Shown here piece by piece: positions 773 through 64,000 of a stretch of 64,000 nucleotides of DNA. A program made the position numbers and the translations under genes. Each line of letters opens with the position of its first letter. The first letter of the stretch is position 1. Under the pieces are notes generated by a model that saw only the letters and a list, made by a program, of their open reading frames with translations, made no database searches and was not told the origin of the DNA. Source of the stretch: Aplysia californica (taxonomy: Eukaryota); NCBI RefSeq assembly GCF_000002075.1, contig NW_004797275.1:1573421-1637420 (forward strand), written 5' to 3'.

Positions 773-23221
<22,449 letters not shown>

Positions 23222-32200: not shown

Positions 32201-32920
32201 TTGTTTTATTTTGAGAATCACACAACATTCCACAATCAGAATTTAATTTGCACACAAGTCTGTCTCTCTAAATATCCTGTCACAGTTTAGACAAGCCCAT
32301 GTGGTATTAGCATTATACAAGAACACTGAACCTGATGAGATTTACTCTTTCTCCAGCCTAAGCTGTCAGCAGGTTGTGTAAAAATGTAGCAATGAATTGT
32401 AAGTGAGAATGCCTGAAGCATTCCTTTTGCCATAGCCATGCTTGTGAGTGGGAATGATGAAGAAGACAAGAAAATATACAGTAATAAATCGTATATATTA
32501 TATATGACAAAATGTACCTTTAAGCAGAGCTGGCATTTTCACAACCTGCATTTAGATTTTAGACAAGCTACTGAAATTTTGAAGTTAATCTGGCCATGTC
32601 AGGCCCACATATCTTTTAAGTAAACCACCCTTCCCCAAATAAAATACACAAAGACTTTATTGTGAGTGTGAAGTGTGGAATATATTCTTCCGCTCATCAA
32701 ATTATTCAAAGAGGATATTGCACATGATTATCTTCTCTTAGTCTTGAGTATTAAAAAAGGCACATTTCCTGCAGAATGAAATCACAATGCATTAAGAAGG
32801 GTCAAAGAAACTCTCTGTCCCTTGTCTATGCAAGAATCATTGACACTTTTATAGACATAGATTATAGAGATATACAAAAAAATTGATTGTATTGCTTTAC
32901 ATATAATATGTCTATTTCAG

Positions 32921-33834
32921 TCATGAACCATCATGTTTTGAATTGCCATTAGAAGATGATGAAAAACTGCTCTGTTTCTTCAACTTCAAAGAAGATTGGG
33001 CAACCCCAAGGTTCTGTTCATATGACTTTGGCTTGTTTTTTGACACTGTGAAAATTCTCGAAGATGTTTTTCTACCAGAGCTCAGTGGTTGTGAACGGGC
33101 ACTTTTTCCTTCTGTAGGAGCTAGTACCTGAGTCAAGTCATCTTCATTACTGTTCAGTCGTTTTGACCCAGAATCAGGGCTAGCCGACTTCAACTGGGAA
33201 GTAAAATCGTTGATCCATTCTTTATCTGGTACCCACTTCGAAGACGGTTTTTGAGCCCCTGATTTCCTGCTGCTTCTGAGTTCAGGATGTTCATTGCGCT
33301 CCAATGCCTGACCTGCCTCATTGGAGGAGATAAAACCTCCACTATTAAGTGCCTCTCTTTTAGTTGACTTTTCTTCTTTTGTCCCTTTTTGATGATCTTT
33401 TGGGGCACTTTCATCAAAAGCACTGACCCAATCAGAGTCCTCGTCCAAATAGCTGCGGAGAATAGTAGGGTCCTCAACAACAATTCTGTCTGGTTTCGAT
33501 GTGTGCCCACGACAAGCAGCAGACATTTGGGACAGGTCCTCGTTAGAATCACGAGATGGGTTCTCTACAATAGTCTCTTCTGTCACTTCCACCAAGCTTT
33601 CTTTTGAACCAGCTCTTGACGAGCTCATTCCATTGGAATATGGCAACCATTGTTTCTCATATTTGGCTTCTAAATCCTCAATAAGGTTCTGAAGTTCCCG
33701 ATCCCTTCGCTTTTGCTCTTCTCGTACAGACTTCTTTTCCCTGATAGCTTTGTCCCGACGTTGTTGACACTGGAACTCTACCGCTGCCAGTTTAGACATC
33801 AAGTCCGCACCATAGGCTCCAAATGCATCTGCTC
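32921..33834 (-). CDS. Terminal exon of the uncharacterised coiled-coil gene
   Basis: ttgcag acceptor; GADAFGAYGADLMSKLAAVEFQCQQRRDK...KHDGS then TGA; matches the 293-aa ORF. Confidence 0.9.
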
Positions 33835-36800: not shown

Positions 36801-39800
36801 TCCTGCAAAGTTTTACTTTCTAGACTAAGAACAATTGGACAGCTTGCCAAAGATAAGCGAAATTTAAACTTAGTCAGAGTCTGCTTTGATTTTCTCCAGC
36901 TTGTTGTAATCTAACTATTATAAGGAAAGGGAGGTTACACTGTAACCCTTGTCATCAATGCAATGAAATATTATAAAAGCTGCAGTGTCAGCATTGTTAA
37001 ATAATAATGCAAGAGGTTCAGCCAATGAGGGTTTCATTTGCTGTTCAAGTTACTAACAACAGCTCTTTTTGTTGTTATAACCATTCTGGTGGTCATAAAA
37101 CAAAAATAAGATGAGGGAATAAAAAAAAGACTTACTTTCCAAAGGGGCACAAATTACACTCTTTGCAGATTCCTCAAATTCAGAGTATCCTTTCCTGAGA
37201 AGACAGAAAAGTAAGACAGCACTATAAAAACTTGCTTAAAAAACATAATGCGTAAGTCACAGAATTATTAACTACACCAGGTCAATGTCAGATTTAAACG
37301 TGTCTAATTCATATTAATGTTGCATTAAATTCTTTTGATGCATAAACTGACTATCTAAATTAGTAGGATATGACAGATGATTATTCATTAACTACCTGTA
37401 CCTCAACAACTGAGTAAGGCATAATTTCCATCTCAATATAAACCAGAGGAAAACAATGGGTTCCTCACAGAGGGTAGAAATAAGGGAAAAACAGGCATTA
37501 AATAGAAAGTCTCTCGAAGTCCAACCCCTCGTCCACGCCGTGGGAGATGGAAACAAGACAAAGTAGGGGATAGCTGGGTCTGGGTGAAGTACGGTGTGAC
37601 TTTATGTCACTGAGGCGTTACGCTAGCCGTGAAGGCCGACCCGGGTCACCCCGAAACGTTGCTGGCCAACGGGGCTCTGGTGAAACTGCGACTGGCTTAG
37701 CAGGCCGGCAGTGGATATAAACATTGCTCAAGAAAACATAAGGAGACACAAACGGACTGATCAAAACGGACTAATGGAGAAGCTCTGCACGAAGAGAAAG
37801 AAATAATAAAAAGATGGGAAGAATATTTTCGTCAAGAACTACTAAACCCATCAGGAGTACAGGCACAAACCACACAGTGCCCCTTCACCGCCAACTACCC
37901 ACAGCACTCTGAACCTACCATCCTGGAGAGTGAAGTGAGAGAAGCACTGAAAACTAGTCCAAAGAACAAGGCAGCTGGAGACGATGGCATCACAACCAAA
38001 GCCATCCTTGCATGCGGCGAAACCGGAATACATTGGCTTACAATCATCTTCCAAAAAGCATGGAAAGAAAGAAAAGTGCCAGCAGACTGGCAAAATGCGA
38101 TAGTGGTGCCAATATGGAAGAAAAAGGGCAGCAAGAAAGACTGCAACACCTATAGAGGCATATCTCTTCTCAGCCATGTTGGGAAAATGTATGCAAAAAT
38201 CCTAGAGCGACGTACTCGCGCAAAAACCGAACATCTTCTCAGTGACGCCCAATTTGGCTTTAGAAAAGGAAGAGGGTGCACTGATGCAATCTTCGCACTC
38301 CGACAACTGTGTGAGAGGGCTTTGGAATACGACAAAGATCTCCACCTCGTATTTGTGGATCAACAAAAAGCCTTTGATCGAGTAAATTGAAGCAAGCTAT
38401 GGAAGATCTTAGAGCAGTACGACATCAAGGGACAACTGCTAGACAACATCAGGGCTATCTATGCCAACAGCAGAAGCGCTGTCCGAACTACCAGTGGAAC
38501 ATCGGACTGGTTTCCAGTAACATCCGGAGTGAGACAGGGCTGCAATCTCTCCCCTCTGCTCTTCGTGATCTACATGGACCAGATAACAAAAGAGGCCAAT
38601 CCAGACCCAGAGGCACTCAATGAACTCATGTTTGCAGATGACCTGGCAATGATTAACAACAAGACTCAGCTACAGGAGCATATAAACCAACTAAATGCGA
38701 GCTGCGAAAAATATGGCATGAAGATCAGTATAAGCAAGACCGAAGTCATGACAATTAGCAGGAGACCAGGTAAAGTGGATATCAACATCAATGGATCCCA
38801 ACTAAAACAAAGCAGAGAATTCAAATACCTGGGCAGCATTTTCACAGAAAATGGAAAATTAGATAGAGAGATAGAGACTAGATGCCAGAGAGCCAACGCA
38901 GTCAGCTACCAACTGGGCCCTCTCCTGAAACATCCCAATATCCCCATGAGCACCAAGGCGAAGCTCATCAACGCCATTTTCCTTCCAACGCTCACATATC
39001 AGTGCCAGACATGGACTCTAACAAAAGCCCTAGAGAGGAAACTGGTCACATGCGAGATGAAATGCTTAAGAAGAGCGGTCAACAAAACAAAAAGAGACAG
39101 AATTAAAAATGAAGTCATAAGGGATACCGTGGGAGCAACACCAGTCCTACCACACATTGAAAAACAAAAGGTTAAGTGGTTCGGACACCTCACGCGGATG
39201 CCCTCAAACCATCCAGCTCTGAGAGCATACAACATTAAATATTCTGGATGGAGAGCCAGAGGAAGACCAAGGCGACGATGGAGTGAATCTGTGGCAGACA
39301 CCCTAAAAGATCATGGGATGTCCCTCCTACAGGCCACACGACTTGCTGCAGACAGACACCTGTGTCTCCCCGTGACACCCCAGGGTACAAGCGGAAGACA
39401 AAAAGTAAAGTAAAGTAAATAGAAAGAGAAAGTTGTATATATATATATATATATCTTCGGGTTGTTTTTTTCCAGCATAAACATTACAGCACATGTAATA
39501 AACAATGAAAAAGTTACATGCAAACACAAAAATGGAAAAAAAATATTCTTAACTGCACTAATAAATGTAAACAAATAGTTCTAAATGTTTTACAAAACTG
39601 TTCATATATTACAAGTGAAAAATAACATTCACTCACTGACCATTTATTATGCCACAGGGACAACAGTCAAATTGAGGCTTGAATTGAATGCCCAAACTAA
39701 TGAGAAAGAAGGAGTTTGTTCAGTGATTTTAGGACACAGCCACAATAGAGAGAGTTAGGAAGCTGTTGCATCTGACTTCATTTATTAAGCCTATCTCTCA

Positions 39801-40148
39801 AGTCAGAGTCACACACAGTCATACTATAACCAGAGAGGCTTCTTTTCTGGATAAATCCACAAATGAAGATTTCTGACATGTCTGGATTTTGCCTGGTTTA
39901 AGGCACTTTCTATAAAAGATAATAGTCTCAATACTAGGTGCATTAGACAATGTGATCCGTACAGTTTGAGTAACGGCGCACACATTTCCAAGGGATCAAA
40001 AAAGTTCAGGGTTTTTATTTTTTCGTTGCCAGTCGGCACTTCTATAAAACAAAGCATGTTAAGATAAGATAAGATAAGATACATCTTTATTGTCTGGCAG
40101 ATCCTGGCACATTGGTTTGGTGTTTCACCATGTACACACACACACACA

Positions 40149-40181
<33 letters not shown>

Positions 40182-43100
40182 TCAAACATGAACGCACACA
40201 AACAGGCCTACAGTCACATGCATAATATTGATGAACAGTAATATAAACAATAATAATTTAAAGCCAGATACATACTCAGTATTCTGATTGTAATTCAATG
40301 TTATTCTGATGCGTGTTCTCTAAAGTCATATGAATGTCACAAAGCAACACTTTGATAGGTTACCTGAGAGCATCAAACAAATCTGTGGTGTATTTGACCT
40401 GCTGTTCATATACAGATCTGTGAAATGCAAGTTCTTCTTTCAGTGCAGCCTTTTCTTTCTCAAGGAGGTGATATCTGTGGTTGCAAGTCCCAATACCAGA
40501 TTGCAGTATATGCACAACTTCATCCTTCTTGCTTCGTGGTAATTGAGGCAAAGCTGCTATAACTCTCTCCACTGGTACTTCTTTGGTTAAGGGCCTCGAC
40601 AAGACAGGCTGCAAAAATACATTATAATGTATGATGATATATAGATTGTAAAGCACACAGAGCTCTCTGTTGAACAGGGATAGGCGATATTCAAATACTT
40701 TTTTCTATCATCATTATTATAATTATGTACGACAGCACAGAGCAAAGCAAGGTATGGGTTAATGACCCTCTTATGCTGAAATGTTATTTAAGGCCCACTA
40801 AGAAACATACTATGTGTCACCATTTGCATTTTATAGAAATATGGAAAGTTAAATTATTAACAACCTGTAATAACCTTTTTTTTTTTAAAACTTCCTAGGT
40901 GGGTGGTTGACAGGTGCTCGCCTGGTGTGGTTTGCTCCTTTTTTCCTATCAAACATCTATCGTCCTTATCACTCCTTCTTTTTTGTATTTGTTACTCTCC
41001 TGTAACATCTGTAATCTTCGGCACCTATACGACCTAATAGAGTTGTAAGTACCGTAAAATACTTACTAAAACAAAAACTTCCAAGCAATGTACATAAACA
41101 GGAAAGCATCTGCCTTTGCACTATAACACTGTACTAACGTATTATTATAGCCATAATCCTGTCCCCGTGGTTTTATGCACCCCGCATAATTTAGGAAAAA
41201 TTGATCATTTTTTGCATAATGTCTGATTATTTTCCTTTAATATTCTTTGTTAAAATTAACAGAATCGCATAATTTTACATTTTTGGGCTCAGTTTGCATA
41301 ATTTCAAAATTTTTCTTGCATAAAATGACGGGGACAGGTAATCATAGTAAAAGAATTTGGTACCTACCCAGGGTGAGCTGGGACATAGTAAGGACAAAGC
41401 CAGAAGGTCATCAGTGGCATCCTTGACCACTAACAAGGATTTCAGAAGCTTTTCCATCAGTCTCTCCTGTTCTGCACAATTCATGCTCCCTCCATGGACA
41501 TGCCCTATATGGAGACTTTGCATCTGCTCATGAACTCCAATGAGCTCCTTGTACACGGTGCATAGCTTAGACTCCAGCTGGGCCTGAGAAAACAGACATT
41601 CAAAAATAAAGTTGTGTAAAAGACCATTTCAACTTTATAAGTTAATATATTTTGAAAGCAAATAAACCAATACTGAAATATAAATGACAGGGGGAAAAGA
41701 CAGACTGAGGTCCATAAGGTGGTAAATGAAAGACTGAGAAAGGGAATGACTTGAAATTACAGTCAAAGATTATGTTGAGAGACATTTTTGGATTTGAAAA
41801 CATGCTGGGGATCTTCAGATATCCGTACGAGACTGATCTGAAATAGGTACAGAAAAATGGGGACTTGTCCAGTTTACCCAGGCAGCACATCCTCAAATCA
41901 TGAAGCTTTTCACTTTTTCAAAGAAAGTGGTTACACAAGTCAAAATAATGTTCTGAAACTTATTTTTGGTCCTGTCGTAGAATTGTTTGGTCTGATCAAT
42001 GTAACATTTTCTGATTTGTCAATAACAGCCCTACAAAACCCCCCAAAAACAGGGACAGCGTGTGAAAAATTAAATCCATGGTATATAAAAAGGGAAAATA
42101 AAGGGGGCTTTCGTCCACGTACGCCCGACATATAAAACTGTAAAAAAAAAGGATATAGATATATATGTGAGGCATCATGGTGAAATCAGGCGCTCATCAA
42201 AACAATGAAATCAAAGAAAACAGCATTTTCCCGCAGGTTTGGATATGCTTCTTATGATCCGGAGAAGGCTGCTTATGATATGGAGAGCAAAAACATAGTA
42301 GTCTAGAACTTCAACTCACTGAAGTTCGACCAAATTTGACAAGGCCTGTACATGTATGCTGGGACTTGCCTGGATGACCTTTGAATAACATTAAGCTGTG
42401 CTATCCCATTGCCTGACACCAAACACTATATACCAAAGGATAGGACATTACCTTCATAAAGCTAGAAGCTCAGTAACAGAGAAGTACATAAATATGATAG
42501 TGCTCATTTCATACAGAGAAAAAAGACAAACAATAGAAGGATAGCAAAGAAGTAAGGCTTCCCCATGACACCCCCAGCCGCCCACACTGTCATCTGTTCA
42601 GAAAACCTGTATCAACAAAGTACATACCACATGCTGCAGATTGAGATAATCCATTCGTCCAAGAGAAATATCCAGTACAGACAACGTCTCCTTTTGTTTT
42701 GCCTTTCCATTAAGAAATGGGTTCAGAAGCAAAAGACTCTTTCCCACTTCTTCTCTGTCACATTTCTGTGAAGCAAAAAGCTTATATTAATATTTGTATT
42801 CAAAATTTCCATGAGCAACTTTAGGGCGAAGTTGGCATTTGGGATACCTTTATCCGTAACAAATCCAAATTCTGTTTCAGTAATTTCAGGATATATTTCA
42901 GTTCTCATTCTTTTCATTAGTACCCCCAGGAGGAATTTAGTAAGATGATTCATGAGACGGATTGTCCTGTGCTGTTCACATTCTGATATTCCAGCTTTTT
43001 GCAGCAATGCTATAAAGATAGATTTTTTCAGATCTTCTGGTACCTGACCTCTACAGTATTGTATATATATGGTGTAAAGTAATGTTGTCACTTCTTTGAA

Positions 43101-46100
43101 TCCACCCCTTCTAGTGCTGTGATCATTTTAATGAGTATGTTGTCTGAGCCTGGAACTTTGCCATATTTCATTTAATCCATGGTGTCTTGAACTTCTTCTG
43201 TCAATATTAATGTTCCCTCAATGTCTTTCAGAAATGCTGGTGCAGAACCGTTATCATAATAGTACATAGTACAGTTCTTCAATATATTCTGACTATCTGT
43301 TCAAAATATATCTAGTATTCATCAAAATTTCTCCTCTTTAGGATTATAAACATCCTATTTTGGGTGAACATAATATTGTATTAGTATGCGAGAAAAAATT
43401 TGTTGAATTATCAATAGGTAGGCCTTTTGGAATATGATTTCATCTTCTCTTTAATGGCTCTATTCCAGCTGGTTCTAGATGTTTAAAAATAAAGATATAG
43501 CAGTATTTGATATAACATTTACTGAGCCAAATTTTTCCCAAACATGACAGCTGATCTTGAAACTATGAGTGGCAATAATATTGTGTTTTATAAGAATATA
43601 TATATATACACAGCATTTCCCTGCCCACTTCCGTACTTAACTCTAACTTACTTCCAACACACACCACCGTTCAGTGAAACCTACCTCAACAGATTTAAAA
43701 AGTTTTATCCTTGATGATTCTAAAGCCTCAATCATGGAAGTCAGATCACTGCGGGAAATTGACACCATGGGCCCTTTGATTTCAGATGCCACATACGACC
43801 TGTTCATTGAAGTATGTGTAGTTATTCAAATCTGTTGGTATAACAATGAGGCAAAAAACAATAAACATAAAACTAAAATTTGTCAAACAAATACTGAAAT
43901 ATTAATTATTCAAAGCCATACCAACCATTCATAATCAATTTATCGATACAAGAATCCAGTAATGCAAATAAACCAACGGCATCTGTGGCGTAGGGGTAAG
44001 GCACTACACCATCTCACAAAGGAGACTTGAGTTCGATTCCTGTGTTGGGAGAATTTTTATCGAGTAAACTCCGCCTTTCTGATGAGATCTGTATCCCTCT
44101 CAGTCCAAGCTGGCCCTCATAGGCAGGGTCAATACCCACCTCCAGACTAATCTAGATTGTGTTGATGGGGGTGAAAGCATAAACATTTAAGGAAAAAAAG
44201 CCCTTACCTCAATCTGTCTGCAAGCCAAGCCATCGTATTTTCAGTTTCCATAATGGCCTCTGATCGAGACCCCAGTGCTTCATTTAAAATGGCAATCTGA
44301 AACAGATCGGTATATTAAGTAAGCTGGTGAAAGTAGGAGGATCAAAACTTGCCATACATAATCCAATAACTTTGGGCTTTACCTGCAATTCTAATCAACC
44401 ATTCACTTCATTTCAAATTAATTAGGCTTATCTGGAAAAATTTTTTTTTTTTTTTTAAAGCATACCCACAAAAGTCTTTCACTCAAAACATCAAATTAAA
44501 AAGAAGACTAGATAAAGTGTAGATAACATTTGACTATAAGTCGACCATAAGTAACACCACAGTCAAAGAAAGATAACTTGTAGAAAAATTTAATTTCTAC
44601 TACATTACCAAAAGCTTACAACAGTATTGTGTTGAAGATGTGAAAATTAGCTTCTGACATTATGCTTTTAAAGAGGTAAATTTCGTCTCGAGATAAAATA
44701 AAAAATATATACCTGCAGCATAGATATCAACAAGACTTGGCACATTTTCAGAGTCACACCAACATGAATACATAAAGGCTACAACAAGAAAGACGCTGGT
44801 GGGGGGGGAGGGTTCTAGAGGTGCAGTGATTGCCTCTTCTTCCAAAGTAGGATACCAGATACAATTTTCCCACCTCATGCAAGCATGGTCGGGAATTCAT
44901 TTTGAGTGTCGAAATTTACTCACAGTCATGACCCTAGTCTAACATTTTAAAGACACTCCGAGAGCTGAAAAATTGCCGAATAAAGTCAGTCGCCTAAGCC
45001 AAATGCCACAATAATACGAGCAAAAAATGAATTCACTCCAAGTCTGGTGAGTGTAAATAAATATATGCCTCTACCTATGTAAATGGTCCCAGTTGCTTTG
45101 GACTTAAAGGCGCAAGACACTATATCTAAGAAAGAAAATAAGCCATGAATGATAAAGCCAGTAACACTGTGCACTGAAGAAGCTACAGTTGACTGGAAAT
45201 TACCTGTCTTTCTAGCTGAATGACTTGAAACTTTATCAGATTAATACGTCTTTCATCAATATTCTCATGAGAGCTTTCACTTGTGACTTGCTTCAAAGAT
45301 GATCTGGAAGGATATAAAAAAGCCTACAAAGTAATATTTGTTTTCATTTTATGTGTTCATTCTATGATGAAACAATGACCCATAGATTATAATGATTCCT
45401 GAGGGAAGATAGAGAGAAATATTTTTATAAAAGAAAAATCAAATTCAGTATGTGTGCATGCATGTCTGAGTGGTGTGCATTATTTCCGGTGCAAGTAGGA
45501 GCCATGGACTTTAGAATGAATTTTTTTTATCACACGACATTGTCATTACAATTTCAAAGCATATTGAAACTATGAAAAACTGCCAGTTGCAATGTCATAC
45601 ATGTATATGTCAAGGAAAAGAGTAACCATGAGGGGGCCAGCATTTCAAAGACAATCTGACATTTTGACCAATGGAGAAGAGCAAGTGATTGTACCAATCG
45701 AAAACAATCTAGCAATTGACATTTAGAAGATGCTCAGTGTAAATGGGCATGTAGTGAGTAAATTTCATTGTCTGCTTGTTCACACCAATTCTTCTCCCTT
45801 CATTCCAACCCAAAGTATAGTAAACCAACTCATGAAAGTTTCATGCTCTGAGTTCGAACTGTGTTCTTAGGAAGATTTCGATTTTTAGACAGGTTATTAG
45901 TATGCAAATTATATTTTTAAAATTCTGTTACACTGTAAAAACCGTTTCTTAGGCTGACCAGGTTCTTACACGAGTGTAAAGTCACCACTGCTTTTATTGT
46001 GATCTACATTTTCTAGCAGTTTCTCATTTGCCTAGACTTTCTAAAAAGTCTTTTCCCTATAGATTTGTCATTCACATCATTCAGGTACGAGATCTATTTC

Positions 46101-52034: not shown

Positions 52035-55000
52035 ATGTCAGACTCTCCAGAAGAGAGTGATTCCCAGGTCTTGTCTGGCTGGACTCTCATCAGCAGTCAA
52101 GGAGAGATTGTTGTGAGTGTTGTTATTGTTAAATTGATTTTATAATTTTTTGTAAGAAATACTTTCGTGGTATTTTCCTTGCAAAGGTCTTGTAAGTTTT
52201 GCTGCCATGTTTGTAAGAAAAGGGACAGAGGAAGCTGTTGCATATATTCAGCCGTTTAACCTTTTATTTCAGTAGTTGGCATAACCACATAGGCAAAGAT
52301 ACAATGCTAATTTTAATGGAGATTCACTATGTTGTGGCGATGTAAAGGATGTGATTTTGTCAGTCCTCTATCTTTTATGGAATTACTGAGCGTTGTGCTT
52401 TATTCTTTTGTGTTGTGCTGGTCACTTTAGCATCATCTGTTAAAAGCTCTACTGATGATGTCTATGATAAGAGATTCTAGTTTTGTTTTGTTTTGTTTTA
52501 TTGTTTCTTTTTTTCTTGATGATAAAATTTTAAAATCACACCAGCCATTAAATATATTTTATGCTATAGAGCTTTCACATTTTCTCAGCCAGGTGATGGG
52601 GAGTCTGAAAGCAGCGAAAGTTCTATTGAGGTGGTGTCATTGGATGACAGTGATAATGTAGATTCCCACTCATCTCGGAGGGGATGGAATATTCAGCAAG
52701 AATCAGGTTTGAAAAATTAGATCACTCGTTGTAAACCTTTTTAAAGCCAGTGCCTACTTTTATCACTTGTAAAAGGCTAAAATTTTTGTACCTCCCACCT
52801 TCTTGTGTTTCCTATCAGGGCATTAAATAATATGTGTTACTACTAGTGGGATCCTCAACACTCACCAAAATGACCCAGTCACCCACAAGAAGTGGGCAGT
52901 GTCACCCTAGTTGACAAGCATGGATTAGGTTCACAAATCTTTCCATGACATTACTTTTTTTTATATGTGTATTTACACAATGGTGCTGGGGAGGGGGCTG
53001 AATTTATTGAGTTTGTGTCAATTATCTTTGTCAAAGAGTTCTTCTTTCTTTGACTAAATCTTTATATTGAAAGTTGTTTGAATTCATTGCTCTTTCAAAT
53101 TGTGCAGAAATGATGTAAGTTTAAGACAAAGGTTGATGGCTTGACTAGCGGAGCCTAATAAGTTGCAAACTGCTTTTGAATCCCTCTCATGAAACTATTT
53201 TCAGTTGCGACAAGGGTCTACTCTGTTTGTAATTAATTTTCTTTACATTGCTGTTCACAGATGGAGCAGTGGTTTTTGAGGATTCACCAAGTGCTCCAGC
53301 TGACTCAGAACAGCCAGGCCAGAATGATGGAGTTGTTGATGACGATGTTGTCAATGATGTCTGCGGCTCATCCCACCCTTCTCACCTTTCACACCCCCCA
53401 GTGGAGGAATTAGACCCCACACAGCACAATTTTGATTCTTCCAGCTCTGTTGAAGCAAGGGTCGCCGACCTTCAGCAAGCAGCTATTGAAGATGAAGAGC
53501 AAGTTAGTTCTGTCATGAATTTGGAAGGACCAGTGTTGTCAGAGCAAGATGCTATAACCTGTGAGAAGGGAGAAGTACCTGTCGAAATGCCAGTGCTGGA
53601 ACAAGCTTCTCTTGAGGAGACTCATCAACTTGAGTCAGAAGGAACTGATGAGCAAACACCTGTGCGCCCTCTCAGCTGCTCCCTTGGAAGTGAGAATCCT
53701 CCAAAGCAACAAGAAGAGAGAGACAGTGATGGACTGGAAAATCTTCTTGGTGCATGCTGTGCTGAAATGTTGGAACAGTAAGTTTTCAAGTGTCACAATA
53801 TTTTCCCCAAAAGTCTTTTCATGACATGAAAATTTAGTCCTTTTGTAGGTTCTGTTTCTTCTTAGTTATGAGTACAGACTTACTAAAATAACAATGTAAC
53901 AATTCTTTGATGTGTTTATGTAATCTGTGGTTGAGGACAGTATGGCTTTTTAAGTGCAAAGATAGTGAAAAAAATTGTGAAAGAGATGGTTTCAATTACT
54001 GGGATTTCTAGCCATTGTAATGTTTACCTACTCCGTGCTGAGAATCAAGATTCATGAGAAAGTTAATATGCGAGGCGTCATGGTGAAATGAGGCGTTGTC
54101 AAAATACTGAAATCAAAGAAATCGGTATTTTTCTGCCAGTTCGAAAATTTTTCTAGAATTTTTACTTTTTGGCTCCATGCCTTCTATGCCCATTTAAACA
54201 GACATTTATGTGTGGAATTAACTGAAAAACGCTGATTAAAGGGACAAAAATTGCTGATTTTCAGTTTCCAAAGACTCTCAAGCTGTGGAAGTCACTAAAC
54301 TTTGGCGGCCATTTTCTCACTAATTTTATCTCTGAAACTAGGTGAACCCTACCTCTGTCGATCACAAGTATCTCTACTTCTATTTTTTCTAATCGAAGGC
54401 AAGACGAATGAACAAGCTGATGTTGCCAATAACTCCACATGCCCAAAAATGACAAGCACCTAATTCCACCACGTCATGACACATATGTTTATGTTTGTTG
54501 AATTTCAAAGGCTTTACACAGAATTGCTTTGTGCATGGGTTTTTTCTTCTAAGGTTTTTTTCTTCTTAGGTTTTTTCTCGAACCTGAAAATGTTCAAGAA
54601 ACATATCTTGTTCTGTTTCAGGAATGTCAGTGGCAGAACAGATGTGCCTCAGATGAACCAAGCAGACGCTGAATTTGAAGATGAAAATCTGAGTCCTGTG
54701 AGTGTACAGGACACTGACTTTGCCCAGGCCACTGGCACACCTAGAGCTGATGCCAGTGCCGGAACCAGAAATGATAGTGATGCAGGTGTGTTCTGATATT
54801 CTGCCCTGTGTTTGTCCTACTTTCAATTTCATTTCCCTAAGATTGTATGTAAAGTAAATTTGGACTTTTTTTTTAAAGAAAAAAAATGTAGGATTGTCTA
54901 CTTGAACTAAAATATGTGAGGTTTCTTTGAATTAATTTCTTCCTTCAACTTAAAATGTGCATCATTTTGTTTTTGCTGAATGTTGCATTTTAGTTGGTAA

Positions 55001-58000
55001 GATCAAGATCCGAAGAATGCCGAAATGGAGAATATCTATGAAATTATCCAAATTTAATAACTGAATTATGAAATCATTTGGTCACAGCTTGTTGAAGTAT
55101 TTTACAAATGTTTTTAAAATATATGTATTTTTTTTGTTAATAATAATATTTATTGCGTGTCAAAGATTTCTGATGTTAATGTGTGTTTTTGTTTTTTTTT
55201 AAAGATCTTGTCTTATGATGTGGCATGCACTTAAGACATTACTGATGTTACTAGACTTTTCACTGCCTTTTCAGATTCTGACTTTGTCTGTTTGGACCCA
55301 GGAAGTCCTGAAGAGGTAGAGAATGTGCTTTACGCAGGCCAGGCTGCGGAGAGAGTTGAAAGGGTCATGGTTCCTCTGAGGATATCAAGGACAGATTCCT
55401 CCATTGGTCCCAACTTCAACTTCATGAGAAATGAAGGTAAATTAATCATGCATCTACTATGTTTTTGCCAGTGATCTCTAGACTAAGATGAATTCCTAAA
55501 CCATTTGGTTTTAGGATTTGTTTAAGTTGACTTGGGGATTTGTTTTAAATGTATGCGTTTTAAGTGTATGCTGTCAGGTATGTTTGGTGTGTGTGTGCAT
55601 GTGTGTACTTTTCAAATTGTGCCAAGAGCCTAGAACTGGCATGTTGATTTAGTCATCAGATCAGTGCAACATTTAAAATAACTGACTAAATTTTTATCCT
55701 TTTTACATCTAATGATGGATAATAGATGTATTGTACAGCATAGGTCTCAGTGATAATAACATTGGGGCACTGTGTTCTTTCTTTCAAAAGATTGATGTCT
55801 TGGCAAGCTGGAGGCACCATGCTTTGAAAAACACAAGATTTCTGGAAAGAAAAATAGGGAATTCAATGGAGTCTGCTCAAAACTGAACATGGTTAATTTA
55901 AAAAATCTGTGGTAAACCAAATAAAATAGAATCTTGATTTTTTCTTCACTATTTGAGCAATCATTCTAAATGAAAAACAGGGCTAAACACAAAAATATCT
56001 GGTGGTCCTTCAGTTTCGGTTTTAAGCAGACACCATTGGAACAGGAAATTAAAAATAAGAAGAGAAAGCATATCAATGAAGCTCTGGCCACCTAAAACTT
56101 GCTGAAAATGAAAGACGAAAGACTTACTAGTAATCTTTTTTTTTTCATCTTTGAGTCTGATTTATTAAGATCTGTGTGGGGGGCTTAAGTGTGTGTATTC
56201 AGTACTGATGCGTCGACTTTCATTGTGGTGTATTTGGTGGGTTCAAATTCAGTCTGTATATGTGAGTGATGTAAATAGGACTCCAACTTTAGTGTCTCAG
56301 GTGCTGTTGATTGTTTAACATTTATTTTGTCTGTTCACTGGGTGGTTGATTTGAACCCTTAAGGGGCCTGCTTCTTCAATTATTTTTTGTATGTGTTTCT
56401 GTTGCCCCTATCTAGTTCGCTGATGTCTGTGATGTAATGGTTGGTCTCTTCAATGTTGAACATAGAAGAAGTAGATGTCAGTTCAATTCAGAAGTGGATA
56501 AATTGTTTTATAGAGTACTTTCATCTGTCTGTTGAGATGCTGTATCCCTGTGAGGCTGGGTTGTTCATAAGTGCCAGTCTCTTAAATGTTCAGAATTATG
56601 TCTATTGTGTGATAAAACATTTACAGTTGAACCTGCTTTAGTGTGGGCCTGACCAAGACTATCACCTGTAGAAAAATACCACTTCCCATTTCACCCCTTC
56701 CAAGGCTCCCCTTATCTGATTCAACTACTTTTATCAAAATTAGATGGCTGTTTTGGACAATTTCAACTGTGCATTTACAATCATCTGGTCATAGTGGAAT
56801 GTGGGCATAATAGTATCAACTAGTTGTAAACGACAGACTCATCTCTCTTATGTAGGTGCCTTGGGGAGGGATCGCTCTGATGGTGAGGAAGAAGATGGGG
56901 ATGAAGAAACTGAGTCGTCAACCGAAGACAGTATTGATGATCGCATTGAGAGTGAGCAGAGTGAGGCTGGCTCTCTTCCTCACTACAATGACATTGGTGA
57001 TTTGTCGTCTGTTTCCGACATTGGCGACCTCCCTTTAGTGGCTGGAAATGTTGCCCGTAACTACAGACACATGCCCAACAACCATCTGACCAATGTGCTG
57101 AACGTCATTGTGTTGCTGACTGCCATTCTCACCATGGGAATTAGTCTTGGCATCATAATGGGTATGTGATTAGCATCTTGCTTTATGTTTTGCGCTTTTT
57201 ATCTGCTGTAGATGACAATTTCAATGACGTACATGGAGAGGTGTCAGCTAACCATTCGAAATTGTTCTTTGTGGGTACTCCGAAAAATTTAAACCAGTGC
57301 TCAGTGTTTGCACAAGATTTTTTTTTCCTGCTGTGTTTGTTTCTGCCCAGCTTAAGAAAATGCATTTTATGATTTTAAGTGTTGTAGTCCTGTTTTTGCA
57401 ATTTTCTCTTATCAAAAAAGATGAAGTGGGATATTTGCTCTACCTTATCCACAGTTTTTATCTACAACAATGAAGTGTTGCCAGTGAAACAATCTGCCCC
57501 TGTACTAGAAACTTGCATTGTAGATTAAGAATTGATAAGGCTTTAAATTAATTAGACAGTTGAGATGATGAAACTGAAAAATAGTTGGAACATTGTGAAA
57601 AAATGAATGACAGAAGTATGGTCAAAATTAGTTTGTTTTTATTGGTCTTTTTTTTACACAGGCCCGACCATACTGATTCTTTGAATATTGAAATCTTTAC
57701 ACAGCAGGGCCCTGCAGTTTTTTACCCTTCCAAGTGTCACGGATCAATTTAAATGGCTGTCACTCCAGCTATTTTTGATCCCTTCCTCTATTTTTTCAAT
57801 CACTAAATCAGTCCTTTCAACACAGGAGAGTTCCTATTTTACTGAGGCTGGAGAAAGGAGTGCAAAAGAATGATAAATTTTGTTGTTTTCTTTTTTCTCA
57901 ACTTTGGTCAGTCCTTATGATTGCCGGTTCTGGCACTTTTGATTAGGAATAAATATAAGTTCCTTTTTATATGAACTTGGTCTAGACTCAAGAGGCAAAT

Positions 58001-61000
58001 TGGTTATTGGTATTGAGACTAAAATGAAGGTGTTTAACATAATATTATTTCTTATGGTCCCATTTCTTATTATTTAAAATTTCTTTTCTTTGTTTAATTT
58101 CACAGTATTTCTTTAGGGTCATTGTCTTAGCTTCTGTAAGTTGTATCTTGTCTCAGTGATTTCAGGATGATTAAATTTCCTTCTTCAATTACAGCTACTG
58201 ATCTGGAAATTGAGGAGTGGCAAAAGGCTTATGAAAAGGAGGCTGAGAAAGTGAGGGACTTGAAGCACACGGCTGAAACTTTTGAAAGGTTATACACCAA
58301 TGTGAGTGACATATTTGTCAGTGCTTAATTTCTATACAGTACTTGTTTCAGAGAAATTGCTATTGGAATATTTTAGCCTTCGCAATACTCTGCTTGTTGT
58401 TTTTTAGGGTCTTGCAGATGTGAAAAAAACCCATTAAATGTGAGACATCGTGGTGATATCAGGCACCTGTCAAAATAATGAAATCAAAGAAATTGACATT
58501 TTTCTTAGGCCTACCGTTGGGTAATTTTAAAATAATTTTCTTATTTTGGCTCAACACCTTTTATATCCAATTAAAAACATACTTCTGTGTGGATTTTACT
58601 GAAAAGCATTGATTAAAGGGTTCCCTACACTGACAACACAGAATCAGACTTCCTTCAACAAATATCCCATTACATTAGTTTCTTTGGCCCAAACGTGATG
58701 AGTAGTGATGGTTTAAGCCTAAAAAATATTGCAAGTACACATTTTGGGGGTGGGGCGCGGCATTTTATGCCGCTCCATACCAACATATTTAAACATTTCA
58801 GAAGACAAGTTTGCAAAATTCATTCAAGATATCTTCTTGCAATTTTGCACAGATGGTCTTATAGGCATTTCTAACAATCATTCAGGAGGATTTTTGGTTA
58901 AGTTAAAAACTCTAATTCTTTAAAAAAAAAAAAAAATGTTCATTATCATAGAATCTCGGAAAAGCCAGAAATTAGGGGGGTGGGCTATCAATTCTCTTGA
59001 AACAGAATTATGAGTAAATATATTTAAAAATCCTTCAGAGTGATTCTTTAAAAATGGATACAGAATAAGTGTGCAAAGTTTAATGTAATTCTGCTGGATA
59101 GTTTTTGAGTTTTGGCGTCTGAAAGGTGATCAGAAGGTCAATTTCAGAAAACGGCAAAAAACTAGAAAAAAGACAGATTTTTTTGTTTACTTCGGTCTAT
59201 GTAAACCTTCACCTCTTCAGACCCTTACAAAATCAGTGGCTCCATAGAAAGGAATTAGTTACGATGAAATGAAGTATAGTTTAAGTTGAAATAATATTTT
59301 TTCAGCCTTCCAATATTTTAAGGAAATATATGAAAATTGATGAGAGACTTGATTCATGCCACAGGCGTTCAAAGTCGGGTGAATTCACGACGACCAAACC
59401 AAAACTAAGCGATGGTGACCCTTTTAAAATGTAATTTTTGCCACTTTATAACAAAATTTATGTCATTTTACATGTTTCTACCGGTCTTAGACATATCAAA
59501 GAATCCAAAAATGGCCTTAACCCAGTTACGTTGTCTGGGCCCCTTTGACCCGTTTTTCCCCTCCTGACTCCGCCGCGGAATTCCTTAGAGGCTCAAAAAT
59601 TTTAATTTCCAGTTTTCAAGGACTCTCTAGCTATGGAAATTACCAGACTTTGACAGACATTTTCTCTCTAATTTCCCCTCTGAATCCAGACAACCCTGAC
59701 TTCCTTCAATCACAAATATTTCGATTTCTGTTCTATACAGGTGGAAATTTTTTATCGCCTAAAGCAAGGCAAATGAACAGGCTTTAAGATTATACCAATA
59801 ACCCCATATGCCCAAAAATTGACGAACGCCATGTCGTGACACAAATGTGTAGCTCTTGCAAATCTACATTAGAATTGGGTGTCATTGATTTTATTTGTTT
59901 TCTAAGTAGGAGATACTTCAGACTTAATATTAATGTGTACTGTCTTAGTTTCATTACTTCTGTTGAGAACAGATAAGAACTTTTTGTGTTTTCATCATCT
60001 TTCATTTTTGTGGAAGATTTTACTCTGATGACTTGTCAGTTTATTTTGCCTTAATTTTTCAATCAGATTGCCTTAAGTTAAAATGTGGTGGTCTGTAGTT
60101 AACACTTTAATCTCTTCCTGGTTGTGGGCTGCATGCTTGTCCTTGGTTGTCAAGTGAAAGTATGTCTAACTGGGTATTACAACCAACATTTTGGTTTTTG
60201 GTAGGCCCAGGAATGGTGGTGGTCTAGACTTCCAAGGTGCATTTGACACCATTGAAAAGAGAAAATTTTAACTGATTTAAGAAAATTCAACTTTGGTGAT
60301 CAATTTGATTAATATAGTAGGTCTACCCAAAGGGGGGGGAGGAACGATCACCAATGCCAATATGCCCATTAGTCAGTCAAGTCGAGAGGTATCAGCAAGG
60401 TATTGAAAATACTAACCCAAAGAAGTGTCCCAAAACAGGATTTGGCCACTTGGCAAGCAATTTGTGTCCTTGGAAAATTGTCAGAATATTTTTGATCTTC
60501 GTTCACAGTAATGCACCTTCTTTAAAATGCCAGATCTTTCTTATTAACTCTTATCCTGCGTCTGTGCCCAGATGCGTATCTGCAACCGATTACGTCGGAC
60601 GTGCCAGGCAGGCCGCCGGGGTCACTCAGTGTGTACTGCTGGTGTACAGCGCGTGCGCCGGGAACATTGTGTTTTCGCCATGAATACCGCGGGAGTGTGT
60701 CCACCGATGATGAAAATAGCGCGTGCTCTATCTTTCATAGCTTTCTATTTATAAAGTGTTACAAACACATGAATAACCCCCTCTCACAAGCTGATAAGAC
60801 ATTACGAGTAGTTACACCCATTCGAATAACCTTTCTCTTGTTGTTATGAATGACCTGAGGTTCGAAAGGGGATAATTTAGGTCAATTTCCGAATGTTTTA
60901 CACTCAAATTGTTCTTTGTTCCTGCACAATGGTATTCAAAACTATCAAACAAGCTTATTTCTTATCAGGTAGTATCATTTCATACAAAATGAAGCTCATT

Positions 61001-63362
61001 TGAAATGTTTTGTATAGAGAAATGGAAGTCTTGTTTCCTGACTATCCTTTCGAGCTCCTCATGTCTAAGTGGGTCAATTTCTTCTATAATTTCATTGGAC
61101 GAACATCTAGGGCTACCAACTTGGCATGTTTTGAATGAGACGTATGCCTCGATTACGAACCAACGCAGGCGGTTCTAGAAGAAGGCCACAAACGCACACA
61201 AACTCAAGCAGACTGACGCACATACACTTTACCTGCGTGAATGGGGATCCGACTCTGGACCCGAATGACATGTAAGAGGATGCGCGCTGCGCTGAGCCAG
61301 GGGCTACACTGATTCAGGACCAGAACGTAGGCGAGGTGCCGAAATTGGCTTATCGAGTGACATAAACCCAACTCCCGCAGGATGAGGGTTAATATATGCT
61401 TTTGCAATGTGTTTCATATATGTAAAATTTCATACTACTGAATGTTTTCCTGACATTATATTTCATAGTTGTAAATTTCATTAAACTGACTGCATTCTGT
61501 AGTCCTTTTGTATATATGAGATGTGTGTTAAAGTGTTCTTGGTGACATTGCCTTGAAGAAATATATGAATTTTTAAATGTTATATTACATTTGTGCGCTT
61601 GGGTGTTTCGATTATGAGATTTTAAGGTACTGTTTATTAATAATAATGATAATAATATAATAATGTTCATTTATTTGGAGTCCATATCCAATGTGTTGTA
61701 ATGGGGGGGGGGGGTGTGTTTGTAATTTATTTGTGCCCCAGATGGAGGATAAGACTTAAGTCATTCGCTACGTATTATTTTTGGCTTGTGGACGAATATT
61801 TTTCGGGAGGGCGAAATGAGATGATGACTAGTGGGCAGTTCAAAGGTCTTTGGGGCCACAAATTAAAATAAAAATATCAACATATTATACACCAAAATTT
61901 TCAGTATGATTTGTAGAATACATCTGTAATGTTTATTTGTGTATTTTTCAACTTTCAATCCTGTGCCGTTGGGGGCAGCTTGGCGTACGGAAGTCACTTG
62001 CACCACGCCGCTGCCCACGGCTCGGCGTAGCAAATTAGTTAATTTCGAGGTTTTACAGAATACTGTTTGGAAATTAATTACAAGTGTCTTCACAACTTTG
62101 TTGTTCAGTCCTCATCTCATAACGATGTGCACAAGTCCCCATTTACACACAACCCTTCTGGCTGGTCCTTAATCAATTTCTCATGGAGTCTCCAGGTCCA
62201 TTCTTGTTTCTTCATCCTGGTCTTGATAGATGATGGTAGCATATTATTATTGTTTTAGTAATTTATAATCTCTTTTGCTTTCAGATGAAACATGATGTTG
62301 AAGAAAAAGACGCTTTCAACATTCTGAAGCTTCATGTAAGTCTGGCTCGTGCTTTATTTTTTAAATGCAATATTTCTCTTGCTCTCAAAATCGTATTTTT
62401 AAAAATATATACCCAGACTCTTTCTGTTGGATTGCCAGTAGATGAGATTTCAAAAAGTAAGAGATGTTTCATGCTTCATGAAGATGGAACTATTACAGGT
62501 AAAAGAAATTCAAAGTGATTTTATTTGTCTTTGAACCGGGCAGTGTATAAAAGGACAAAAGTAGAAATGTTGCAATTGATGCCCTTGTGTTTCGTATTAG
62601 AAAGTGAAAAGTATGAGGACTTGGTAAATGCAAAAATATTGCTTGTATGCAGAAACTGTGAAGTGGGCCTGGGGCTTGCAGTGTCTTTATTTCCAGGTGG
62701 TATACACTTTGACGGTTCCAGAGATGACAGTAACACTTGCAAATTGTATAGCAAACTTTGCTGTGCTTTAACCGCTTTGTCCTAACATCTCGCTATTCTG
62801 TAGTGTGCAAAGATTGAAATGGAAACTGTAACATTTCTTTCTGGCCTTGTGATTCAATTTATTCAAAGTTTGACCCTTAAGAGGGATTTTTTTTTCTTGT
62901 TTCCTCAGGCTTTCGAAGAGGACAAGAATTTTCATGATATTCTTGAAAAACTCCAAGAAGCCACCGCTGCTTATGCAGCTTGTTCAAGGGCAAAACATCT
63001 TAGGCCATGTTATTACACTGTTTCACCACGTTTGAACACACTGAAGTTGGCTCTCATAAATTACCCAGACAAAAATCAGAAGCAGGAGGAGAGAGTTGAA
63101 TACATCAAGCCTACTGCACACATGAATGAAGATGATCACCAGGAACAAGTAGATGATGAAAACGCTGATGAAGACTTTGAGAGTGATAGTTCCACCCTAG
63201 ACGGTGAAAGCGACTCTGTCCCTCCGAGTGAGGAGATTGACGTTTCAGCTTTACTTCAAGAGGAGGAGGATGGGGTCGTGGCAAGTGAAGATGATACCAT
63301 TGGTGGTATAAACTCAGATGCTGTTGAGAGATATGGTCTTGAAGCACATACCAGAAAAGGAG
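52035..63362 (+). CDS. CCPG1: CCPG1/PBXIP1-like type II transmembrane protein (putative ER-phagy receptor), 3' incomplete
   Basis: Phase-compatible exons 52035-52112, 52589-52706, 53261-53777, 54622-54785, 55275-55436, 56856-57161, 58195-58301, 62285-62335, 62909-63362. N-terminus MSDSPEESDSQVLSGWTLISSQG (human CCPG1 has SCGWTVISHEG); SDADSDFVCLDP (human SDDSDIVTLEP); TM LNVIVLLTAILTMGISLGIIM followed by coiled coil. Confidence 0.75.
53261..53777 (+). CDS. Large acidic, disordered exon of the CCPG1-like gene
   Basis: Matches ORF 53248-53781; cacag acceptor, CA|gtaagt donor. Confidence 0.85.
54069..54483. mobile_element. MITE family A, full copy
   Basis: TA|TGCG...CACA|TA, colinear with 34815-35242. 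Confidence 0.85.
56856..57161 (+). CDS. Transmembrane-encoding exon of the CCPG1-like gene
   Basis: Acidic stretch then a 21-residue hydrophobic helix; G|gtatgt donor. Confidence 0.88.
58617..59585. mobile_element. ~1-kb insertion nested in a family-A MITE at a TTAA (Kolobok-like termini)
   Basis: Family-A sequence stops at GATTAA|AGGG (58617) and resumes near 59585; right boundary uncertain (59544 or ~59584). Confidence 0.6.
60548..61388. mobile_element. Non-autonomous piggyBac-like element
   Basis: TTAA|CTCTTATCCTGCG...CGCAGGATGAGGG|TTAA: 13-bp imperfect TIR, TTAA TSD. Confidence 0.85.
62909..63362 (+). CDS. Luminal acidic exon of the CCPG1-like gene
   Basis: ctcag acceptor, AFEEDKNF...HTRKG, G|gtgagc donor. 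Confidence 0.85.
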
Positions 63363-64000
63363 GTGAGCACTGTATGAGTATGTGTCGCACAGGGTATAAC
63401 AAAAAAATTCCTTTAAGGAATTCACCTTTTTCTTTGAAAGTGCCTCATAATGATCTTTGGCTGCCTGCGATGTTCAGTGTTCCCTGTCCACTCTCATTGT
63501 CTGAAGATTTTACCTTCTTTAGTATTTTGCTGGGTTTTTTCTTTCCTTTTGACATCAAGCCAAAGTTTTGAGAACGGTTTGTCTTAACTCAAAGTGTATG
63601 GTCCACTTGCTGCCTCTTCACCCAGTGGTCATTGCACTGACTGTGAATTGTAATGCATGTATTCCACAAAACAATGGAATCAGGCGCAGGTCAATTTTGG
63701 TCGCTTTAAGTTATTGGTGTAATCTTAAAGCCTGTAAAAGAGACTATCTATCTTGAATAAAAATAGAGATATTTGCAACTGAAGGACGTGGGGGTCACCT
63801 GGTGTCAGAGGTAAAATTAGCGTGAAAATAGCCACCAAAGTCGGCTGACTTCCAAATCTGGAGTGTCCTTGAGAAACTGTAAATTTACTTTTTACGGGAT
63901 AAACATTTTTTGGTAAAATTCAAGGAGGAATGTGTTGTTAAATGGATATAAGGTATTGAGCCCAAAACAAACAAAAAAATTGAAAAAAATTTCCCAGTGG

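Follow-up and report, generated by a model that had tools for sequence, protein, structure and literature searches.

An Aplysia californica gene likely encodes a distant relative of the ER-phagy receptor CCPG1

The window, the whole 64,000-nucleotide stretch of Aplysia californica DNA that we analysed, contains at positions 52035-63362 nine GT-AG coding exons that form one open frame of 652 codons when spliced. The gene, LOC101851543, has ten coding exons in all. Its terminal exon 10 lies just outside the window (2159 bases, G000:C5:1637880-1640038, equivalent to L001:1880-4038) and contributes 718 amino acids and the stop codon. The ten-exon product has 1371 amino acids and is letter-for-letter the NCBI Aplysia protein of LOC101851543 (uncharacterized; protein P0005). 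The features of the gene are as follows.

52035..52112, + strand: coding exon 1, residues 1-26, with the start codon
52077..52103, + strand: LIR region GWTLISSQG; GWTLI is residues 15-19, with the core W16-T-L-I19
52589..52706, + strand: coding exon 2, residues 27-66
52619..52642, + strand: FIR1-like motif SSIEVVSL, residues 37-44
53261..53777, + strand: coding exon 3, an acidic low-complexity linker whose end lies near a GACC motif common to gastropod members
54622..54785, + strand: coding exon 4, whose final 10 bases begin the FIR2-like motif
Residues 290-301, + strand: FIR2-like motif SDADSDFVCLDP, interrupted by the exon 4/5 intron in phase 1
55275..55436, + strand: coding exon 5, of which 55275-55300 finishes the FIR2/LIR-like motif DADSDFVCLDP
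56856..57161, + strand: coding exon 6, a conserved juxtamembrane block and the single transmembrane (TM) helix
57098-57161, + strand: TM helix, L428-A449, in exon 6
58195..58301, + strand: coding exon 7, the first section of the predicted luminal part, helical
62285..62335, + strand: coding exon 8, 17 codons
62909..63362, + strand: coding exon 9, an acidic luminal linker
63363..64000, + strand: first stretch of intron 9; exon 10 lies past the window end
Exon 10: CIR1-like block (residues 669-687), predicted Cys-rich helical domain (residues 943-1088) and W-x-F-E-R-A repeats

A splice acceptor 5' of exon 1 makes an upstream non-coding exon likely. We rejected a pseudogene or chance ORF because the frame is open, an identical protein is in the database and the family is conserved. 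The earlier note had listed GWTLI, SSIEVVSL, an acidic region, the FIR2-like motif and one TM helix in that order, and all are present in the spliced frame. One copy of LOC101851543 was found in the Aplysia genome; the search for paralogues (query P0041) gave one real match, and another at E 0.139 with two stops. Four RNA runs over exons 1-5, in the form of filtered reads, were uninformative, with almost no exon depth and zero splice joints, and a repeat pile-up in intron 3 was the sole RNA signal.

The protein has one hydrophobic segment, with a top 19-residue hydropathy of 2.56 at 430-448 and no other value above 1.6. The region ahead of it is 23% D+E and 5% K+R, and C-terminal to it lie helical heptad-like stretches, detected by a weak test with no null. 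Net charge is more positive ahead of the TM helix in 24/29 family members, which favours an N-in orientation; sequon densities (0.70 vs 0.43 per 100 aa) do not favour the C-terminal side and lend the topology no support.

The putative cytosolic part resembles that of human CCPG1 in several short motifs. The nonamer GWTLISSQG shares 6/9 identities with human residues 13-21 (sequence taken from PMC6971691), and DADSDFVCLDP shares 6/11 with human FIR2, 101-111. SSIEVVSL has Ser instead of Asp preceding Ile, so phosphorylation would be needed at this site. A motif match alone is weak, because 3.4% of shuffles yield W-x-x-[LIV] within the first 45 residues and the cytosolic part contains 6 matches to the published FIR consensus where 2.4 are expected. 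It is conservation, not mere occurrence, that singles out the LIR-, FIR1- and FIR2-like sequences as candidate motifs. Across 16 mollusc-type proteins, W16, G23, S38 and E40 are invariant and S290, D291, D295 and L299 nearly so. SSIEVV and SDFVCL both satisfy the FIR consensus, both are conserved in gastropods, and the FIR1- and FIR2-like motifs form islands amid otherwise unalignable sequence. The earlier note is correct that FVCL also matches a LIR, but this does not set the protein apart: the published FIR consensus allows F/W/Y, optineurin has a dual LIR/FIR motif, and human CCPG1 FIR2 binds ATG8s. We rejected the dual motif as a novelty in itself.

Relatives were retrieved with a profile, A3, built without the motifs. 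It returned 79 proteins spanning gastropods, bivalves, an annelid, a horseshoe crab, a millipede and a mayfly; named members include Haliotis, Lottia, Babylonia, Pinctada, Saccostrea, Owenia, Tachypleus, Chamberlinius and Cloeon. An N-terminal LIR (first 45 aa) is present in 18/22 full non-seed N-termini, against 1.03 expected. When cluster mates are included, 31/36 members carry the LIR, 20/36 a FIR1-type and 20/36 a FIR2-type motif (0.11, 0.30 and 0.15 expected, for patterns tuned on these data). Motif conservation in invertebrate relatives is thus supported, although the FIR motifs are found less widely than the LIR and 8/36 members have neither FIR form. Arthropod-type members show neither an aromatic FIR2 nor the CIR1 pattern in any case; some retain SDIE motifs near human FIR1, and one relative (P0110) has GSDIETL, with 6/7 identities to it. 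A tree of the invertebrate proteins follows taxonomy and places the LOC101851543 clade on a long branch (1.43). Scanning metagenomes with the family alignment gave 29 pattern matches, 0 of them confirmed.

The uneven spread of FIR forms raises the possibility that the protein is truly related to CCPG1 but works as a receptor through ATG8 alone, bound by the LIR and by FVCL as a second LIR, with FIP200 recruitment fixed in some lineages only. The members that have no FIR form fit this explanation, as does the Ser at position -1 of FIR1, where papers require an acid or phospho-residue, and acidic sequence often yields generic FIR matches. However, both FIR-like motifs are conserved where their surroundings are not, DSDFVCL is fully consistent with the FIR consensus, and the SDIE motifs persist in arthropod-type members. 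We regard an ATG8-only receptor as unlikely.

LOC101851543 very likely belongs to the CCPG1/PBXIP1 family as a diverged member, as judged from collinear, gap-free sequence matches (TM signature, Cys, CIR1 and CIR2 cores) together with the ESM Atlas. The vertebrate comparison was made by eye against a published alignment (PMC10092646 Fig. S7A), in which the spacing L1...G18-H19-x-x-G22 occurs in 5/5 vertebrates. The signature LN...G-x-G-H-x-x-G is complete in 23/37 invertebrate relatives. Among non-heterobranch members, H19 is present in 23/24 and a Cys at position 51, 29 residues behind the TM signature, in 14/24; human and frog have this Cys and mouse does not. LOC101851543 keeps L1, N2 and G18 in register and has a phase-1 intron at position 22 of the block, but only 8/51 positions match human. 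Its lineage has lost H19, C51 and the CIR2 pattern, whereas other members retain the CIR2 core and Cys51.

The resemblance extends into the predicted luminal part. Human CCPG1 has the luminal regions B, C and D, which correspond to CIR1 (411-457), CIR2 (482-550) and CIR3 (621-734); CIR1 and CIR2 are cargo-binding. Residues 669-687 of LOC101851543 share 9/19 identities with human 434-452, inside CIR1, and Haliotis 1046-1086 shares 14/41 with human 489-529, inside CIR2, both by eye and gap-free. The CIR1 pattern E-x-x-R-x-x-x-W-x-x-L-Y occurs in 18/37 relatives against 0.01 expected and the CIR2 pattern in 11/37; a KFS pattern occurs little more often than chance predicts (9 vs 5.0). Conservation is therefore wider than the short motifs in which the earlier note had mainly placed it, since the TM block and the CIR1/CIR2 cores match as well. 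All matched blocks occur in the same order as in vertebrates. The outcome that the earlier note named as refuting its reading, a C-terminus from another family together with unconserved motifs, did not come about.

The ESM Atlas returned CCPG1/PBXIP1 first for each of two non-overlapping parts among 7.7 million clusters, with scores (0.76, 0.85) that lie below 0.9 and are leads only. For exon 10 the CCPG1 cluster ranked first and the best family matches were alike (10/10); for residues 1-420 of P0002, CCPG1_N/PBXIP1 clusters took ranks 1, 3 and 5. The PBXIP1-named clusters carry CCPG1_N/CCPG1_C, which places PBXIP1/HPIP in the same family, and the likeness to vertebrate PBXIP1/HPIP is known from these Atlas clusters alone, for the N-terminal part of P0002.

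Word-based searches gave no vertebrate or deuterostome protein, and sequence searches, including the motif-free profile A3, retrieved no vertebrate protein. The CCPG1 link therefore stands without an E-value, and the expectation that ordinary searches would easily miss it proved correct. A single luminal block compared with the whole protein pair gives E about 2, which is not significant, and about 0.001 only if the comparison is restricted to conserved blocks. PSI-BLAST with the CCPG1 CIRs reportedly retrieved nothing. In a local 2025 copy of Pfam, 5 exons matched no family above cut-off and no family was common to 25 invertebrate members; PF27636 (CCPG1_N) and PF27631 (CCPG1_C), named in Pfam 38.1, are absent from that copy, and newer Pfam, InterPro or PANTHER releases may already include some invertebrate members. 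For synteny we compared PIGB, PMVK and PIERCE, which we take to be neighbour genes, and none is on scaffold C5. Matches to the PIGB family, PMVK and PIERCE were found on other Aplysia scaffolds; the scaffolds are too short for chromosome-level linkage.

Could a type II membrane protein of protostomes, unrelated to CCPG1, have come to resemble it in short motifs and helices by convergence? Such a protein would account for the empty vertebrate searches, for single blocks that are not significant alone and for the lack of shared neighbours on this scaffold, and the by-eye comparison was made with CCPG1 already in mind. Convergence would nonetheless have to reproduce the order of seven features and, for two of them (G18-H19-G22 and C51), exact gap-free spacing. 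The CIR1 match sits in exon 10, outside the stretch first inspected, and each of the two parts had the predicted family at the top of its Atlas ranking. We consider convergence very improbable, and the homology to CCPG1/PBXIP1 that had been proposed for this gene is supported.

Beyond the shared blocks, the luminal part contains a predicted folded helical domain (residues 943-1088, pLDDT 87.9) at a position similar to CIR3, although by eye neither it nor CIR3 could be aligned to the vertebrate alignment, and W-x-F-E-R-A repeats, which are not in that alignment. Fold searches found nothing at E <= 0.001. The best fold match (VIA Z 7.3, whole exon 10) is not above background, nor is that of the Cys-rich domain alone (VIA Z 6.5, rmsd 3.5, 91 aligned), and the family profile, searched against PDB sequences, gave coiled-coil and designed helical noise only. 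The fold searches do not demonstrate a new fold, nor do they point to a function.

These features suggest a mechanism, proposed from sequence as regards location in the ER, binding and a role in ER-phagy. As a type II protein, LOC101851543 would expose an acidic, probably disordered 427-aa N-terminus to the cytosol. Phosphorylation of Ser beside SSIEVV and DSDFVCL could allow docking in the FIP200 Claw and, in turn, recruitment of the ULK initiation complex. WTLI, with FVCL as a second site, may bind lipidated GABARAP/LC3 on the phagophore, while the long linker would bridge ER and phagophore. With its CIR1-like helix and adjacent modules, the luminal part might capture secretory protein that is misfolded or aggregated, and the cargo-loaded ER would then be engulfed and degraded. 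The Aplysia genome contains four ATG8 loci. A GABARAP stand-in is 100% identical to the Aplysia exon over 66 matched residues. A search of the genome for FIP200 was uninformative (PF10377, no match; PF04108, noise only).

Alternatively, a true relative could have another main job, for example as a luminal or membrane scaffold, in line with the roles reported for CCPG1 before 2018 or with PBXIP1-like roles, and its LIR would be used chiefly in turnover of the protein itself or for another organelle. N-terminal Atlas matches are named PBXIP1 oftener than CCPG1, large luminal parts are specific to invertebrates, and a scaffold role for CCPG1 is in the literature. Family C-termini have no KDEL-like or other ER retention signal in common. 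A motif scan upstream of LOC101851543 found no canonical UPR element and no ERSE; a single TGACGTGG lies in intron 3, against 1.62 expected. Yet the best-conserved cytosolic features are autophagy motifs, which a long acidic linker carries at its end as in known ER-phagy receptors, and the retained luminal blocks are those mapped as cargo-binding. Another main job seems improbable to us. Our preferred reading, in which a very likely CCPG1/PBXIP1-family member is likely an ER-phagy receptor, we hold with reasonable but not high confidence.

Like vertebrate CCPG1, LOC101851543 has the order LIR, FIR1, FIR2, single TM helix and long C-terminal part. It differs in length (1371 vs 757 aa, with 427 vs about 215 residues ahead of the TM helix), in the 18 residues that separate FIR1 from the LIR core, in its aromatic FIR2 and in the added Cys-rich helical domain and W-x-F-E-R-A repeats. 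Yeast Atg39, described as a structural analogue, is a type II protein of the ER and nuclear envelope that has motifs for Atg8 and Atg11 binding on its cytosolic side and a tail in the lumen. It is not reported to carry CCPG1-type blocks, and the likeness is one of description. The closest precedent for DSDFVCL is the optineurin motif (Acid/Ser-F-V-x-hydrophobic), which binds ATG8s and the FIP200 Claw, although optineurin is a soluble ubiquitin-binding receptor of unrelated architecture.

CCPG1 has been called vertebrate-specific, or without non-vertebrate orthologues, in the discovery paper, the luminal-cargo paper, and three further reviews or commentaries. Among the literature matches listed, many of them unrelated, none described an invertebrate CCPG1. 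Kin in molluscs, an annelid and arthropods indicate that this way of disposing of damaged ER, which has been described as confined to vertebrates, is likely older than they are; a protostome-wide family would date its origin to the bilaterian ancestor at least. Evenly balanced, in our judgement, is a bolder proposal: that the complete mechanism, dual ATG8/FIP200 docking with CIR1/CIR2 cargo capture, was present in the protostome-vertebrate ancestor or perhaps earlier, and survives unannotated in molluscs, annelids and arthropods. There it would include extra cargo modules since lost or replaced in vertebrates: the Cys-rich helical domain, which has no clear solved relative, and the W-x-F-E-R-A repeats. 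The residues shared by molluscs and vertebrates make it possible to test how CCPG1 recognises its cargo in the lumen. They provide a short mutagenesis list for human CCPG1: G-H-x-x-G and the Cys that follows the TM helix, the W-x-x-L-Y helix in CIR1, and K-E-T-x-x-x-x-K-N, with which CIR2 starts.

LOC101851543 is a real gene. Nine of its coding exons lie in the window (G000:C5:1573421-1637420; G000 is the Aplysia assembly and C5 this scaffold), and exon 10, of 2159 bases, lies 460 bases downstream of the window end.

Coding exons of LOC101851543 in the window (each with GT-AG splice ends and an open frame)
52035-52112, + strand, coding exon 1
52589-52706, + strand, coding exon 2
53261-53777, + strand, coding exon 3
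54622-54785, + strand, coding exon 4
55275-55436, + strand, coding exon 5
56856-57161, + strand, coding exon 6
58195-58301, + strand, coding exon 7
62285-62335, + strand, coding exon 8
62909-63362, + strand, coding exon 9

The spliced ten-exon product has 1371 residues and is identical to the database record P0005 (NCBI: uncharacterized protein LOC101851543, Aplysia californica). It carries WTLI at aa 16-19, SSIEVV at aa 37-42, SDADSDFVCLDP at aa 290-301 and a single transmembrane (TM) segment at aa ~428-449. The gene that the earlier note described, with an ATG8-binding motif (LIR), motifs resembling the FIP200-binding FIRs and one TM helix, is confirmed; what the note covered is under half of the protein. 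Residues 1-427 are acidic, of low complexity and devoid of a hydrophobic signal segment. Net charge drops from +2 before the TM to -4 after it, and 24 of 29 relatives are also more positive before the TM (3 ties, 2 opposite). Because there is no signal segment and charge is more positive N-terminal of the TM, we infer a type II topology. The TM exon ends at window 57161. Short genomic ORFs of relatives run on past G-H-x-x-G with K, E or Q in 23 of 42 cases, which is what reading through a GT donor would produce and hints at a family-wide phase-1 intron at this point.

Several other features of the gene deserve mention. In the cytosolic linker, G-A-C-C followed by L-L (window 53750-53761, aa 229-232) is kept in 11/11 gastropod-type proteins and is a possible palmitoylation site. 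C-terminal of FIR2 lies an F-x-F motif (window ~55416-55430, aa 340-344; F342 invariant, F340 nearly so) that is also present in annelid and arthropod-type members and has no counterpart in the CCPG1 literature examined. Reads and contigs pile up very deeply on a short repeat in intron 3 (window ~54290-54340), and intron 7 holds elements that resemble this repeat by eye.

The FIR consensus and dual motifs are described in the accessible parts of PMC7946963 and PMC7615515. Six matches to the consensus (PMC7615515) precede the TM, versus 2.4 expected. Single motif matches in acidic sequence are weak evidence, and conservation was therefore examined with a motif-free profile. It was seeded only with the segment of seven gastropod-type proteins that starts at the juxtamembrane block and ends at the first luminal block, LIR and FIRs being left out to avoid circularity. 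Against 1.84 billion representatives it gave 79 matches at E <= 0.001, of which 7 were ids already known, 24 were new proteins of at least 500 aa and 48 were short single-exon pieces; a further search added two long relatives, making 26 long non-seed proteins. After four with < 100 residues before the hydrophobic peak were dropped, W-x-x-[LIV] was found within the first 45 residues of 18 of the remaining 22, versus 1.03 expected, in rows that are related by descent and are not independent trials. Of the four misses, two share a cluster with a longer protein that does carry the LIR (P0115 and P0116), and one has the motif at residue 48. Of the three motifs, the LIR is kept most often (31/36 members), with FIR1- and FIR2-type motifs in 20/36 each; conservation among invertebrate relatives is supported.

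The names of 24 relatives, examined for origin, bring the family to 17 species, Aplysia included: ten other gastropods (Candidula, Plakobranchus, Elysia, Lymnaea, Bulinus, Biomphalaria, Bradybaena, Babylonia, Haliotis, Lottia) together with Pinctada, Saccostrea, Owenia, Tachypleus, Chamberlinius and Cloeon. As far as labels were shown, these proteins are called uncharacterized, hypothetical or unnamed. In a tree built on the TM region (34 rows, 148 columns), the heterobranchs (100/99, stem 1.43), the bivalves and the mollusc-type rows as a whole (96/91) each form a group, a pattern that fits vertical inheritance of a single gene; the search of the Aplysia assembly yielded one copy.

Sequence searches, including the profile over the same representatives, retrieved no vertebrate protein. 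In the ESM Atlas, exon 10, which the note's author had not seen, placed a chordate CCPG1 cluster first (score 0.76), and 10/10 best family matches were alike. A query with residues 1-420 of the invertebrate relative P0002 placed PBXIP1/CCPG1-family clusters first, third and fifth (0.85, 177 shared features); both scores are below 0.9 and serve as leads only. Second place went to an unnamed arthropod cluster of 73 proteins (601 aa, no Pfam match, automatic name trichohyalin-like), which may represent the invertebrate family in insects and crustaceans.

We compared the family by eye with the five CCPG1 sequences printed in Supplementary Fig. S7A of PMC10092646, numbering the TM block from its opening Leu (human L215 in the peptide numbering of the PMC5791736 supplement). 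G18-H19-F-Y-G22 is present in 5/5 printed vertebrate sequences, and H19 in 23/24 non-heterobranch relatives. Cys51 is ungapped in human and frog, follows gaps in chicken and zebrafish, and is Arg in mouse (the same figure); 14/24 non-heterobranch relatives have Cys at exactly this position. The Aplysia protein keeps L1, N2, L7, G18, T23, Q31, D43 and K45 of the human block (8/51), and H19 and C51 are missing from it and from all 10 heterobranch-type rows. In the predicted luminal part, Aplysia aa 669-687 match human 434-452 at 9/19 positions without gaps, the core of the cargo-binding region CIR1 (411-457, as printed in PMC10092646). Haliotis 1046-1086 match human 489-529 at 14/41, inside CIR2 (482-550, same source); the CIR2 pattern occurs in 11/37 relatives and is absent from the Aplysia protein. 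Identity to the human residues is 6/9 around the LIR (as printed in PMC6971691), 6/11 in FIR2 (PMC5791736 supplement) and, in FIR1, 3/7 in the Aplysia protein and 6/7 in the relative P0110.

Seven features (LIR, FIR1, FIR2, TM signature, Cys51, CIR1, CIR2) thus share one order in the invertebrate family and vertebrate CCPG1. Each luminal block alone has E ~2 over the whole protein pair, reaching ~0.001 only if placements are restricted to conserved blocks (a rough binomial with assumed background identity), and both groups were already in sight when the patterns were drawn up. A KFS pattern occurs little more often than chance predicts (9 vs 5.0), and CIR3 is not alignable between the groups. 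Convergence on this likeness is very improbable in our judgment; homology to vertebrate CCPG1 is highly probable. By the by-eye collinearity and the two Atlas leads, the product is very likely a diverged CCPG1/PBXIP1-family member, as the note had suggested.

AlphaFold2 models the exon 10 product (mean pLDDT 63.2) as a long confident helix across the CIR1-like block plus a compact domain. Modelled alone, this domain (aa 943-1088) reaches pLDDT 87.9 and pTM 0.82, and four of its Cys are invariant among 15 close relatives. The luminal tail carries W-x-F-[ED]-R-A repeats, a pattern found in 25/37 relatives; five W-x-F-x-R-A-like copies lie at L001:3560-3900 (local downstream numbering) in exon 10, and such repeats occur from molluscs to arthropods. 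Unlike the Aplysia tail, the vertebrate CCPG1 alignment lacks them, and they are a candidate cargo or oligomer module.

According to the accessible parts of PMC5791736, PMC10092646 and PMC7946963, the human FIRs engage the FIP200 Claw, an interaction that Ser phosphorylation promotes, and the LIR engages ATG8s; IAPP aggregates are ligands of CIR1 and CIR3, and P3H4 is a ligand of CIR2. By analogy, the Aplysia FIRs would dock the FIP200 Claw with help from Ser phosphorylation, the LIR would bind ATG8s and the luminal part would capture cargo as the human CIRs do. The Aplysia assembly holds four ATG8 loci; FIP200 was not located there by the searches made. Neither FIR form is present in 8/36 members, versus a LIR in 31/36, which leaves a small probability that the receptor engages ATG8 alone. 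A family member with another main role is likewise an unlikely reading. We consider that it probably functions as an ER-phagy receptor.

The genomic neighbourhood offers a weak hint of linkage. Exons of a protein kinase gene (kinase match; presumably MAP2K1/MEK1-like) lie at window 3060-15584, + strand, and human MAP2K1 and CCPG1 are both on 15q. The kinase gene has two similar short exons, near 13155-13436 and 15300-15584, which may be alternative or duplicated. A multi-exon minus-strand gene with coiled-coil-like exons (window ~32900-44900), oriented divergently to LOC101851543, gave no Pfam match in four exons examined; one of its introns holds a plus-strand LINE-type reverse transcriptase in two frames (37761-39413; RVT_1, E 3e-20). 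Downstream lie what we take to be a CaM-kinase-like gene (G000:C5:1646987-1647214, -), LETM1 (G000:C5:1666336-1675388, +) and P5CS/ALDH18A1 (G000:C5:1685680-1695759, -). None of 11 PIGB-family matches is on this scaffold.

Our literature search found no publication on an invertebrate CCPG1, with most subscription papers, picture-only figures and bioRxiv supplements outside its reach; the accessible parts of PMC12992112, PMC8004021 and the supplements of PMC7535936 hold nothing on the subject. Invertebrate members may already be recognized in Pfam 38.1, InterPro or PANTHER. CCPG1 is called vertebrate-specific in the accessible text of five papers (PMC5791736, PMC10092646, PMC9126229, PMC6971691, PMC6154861), and an invertebrate member of the CCPG1 family, as LOC101851543 very likely is, contradicts this repeated statement.
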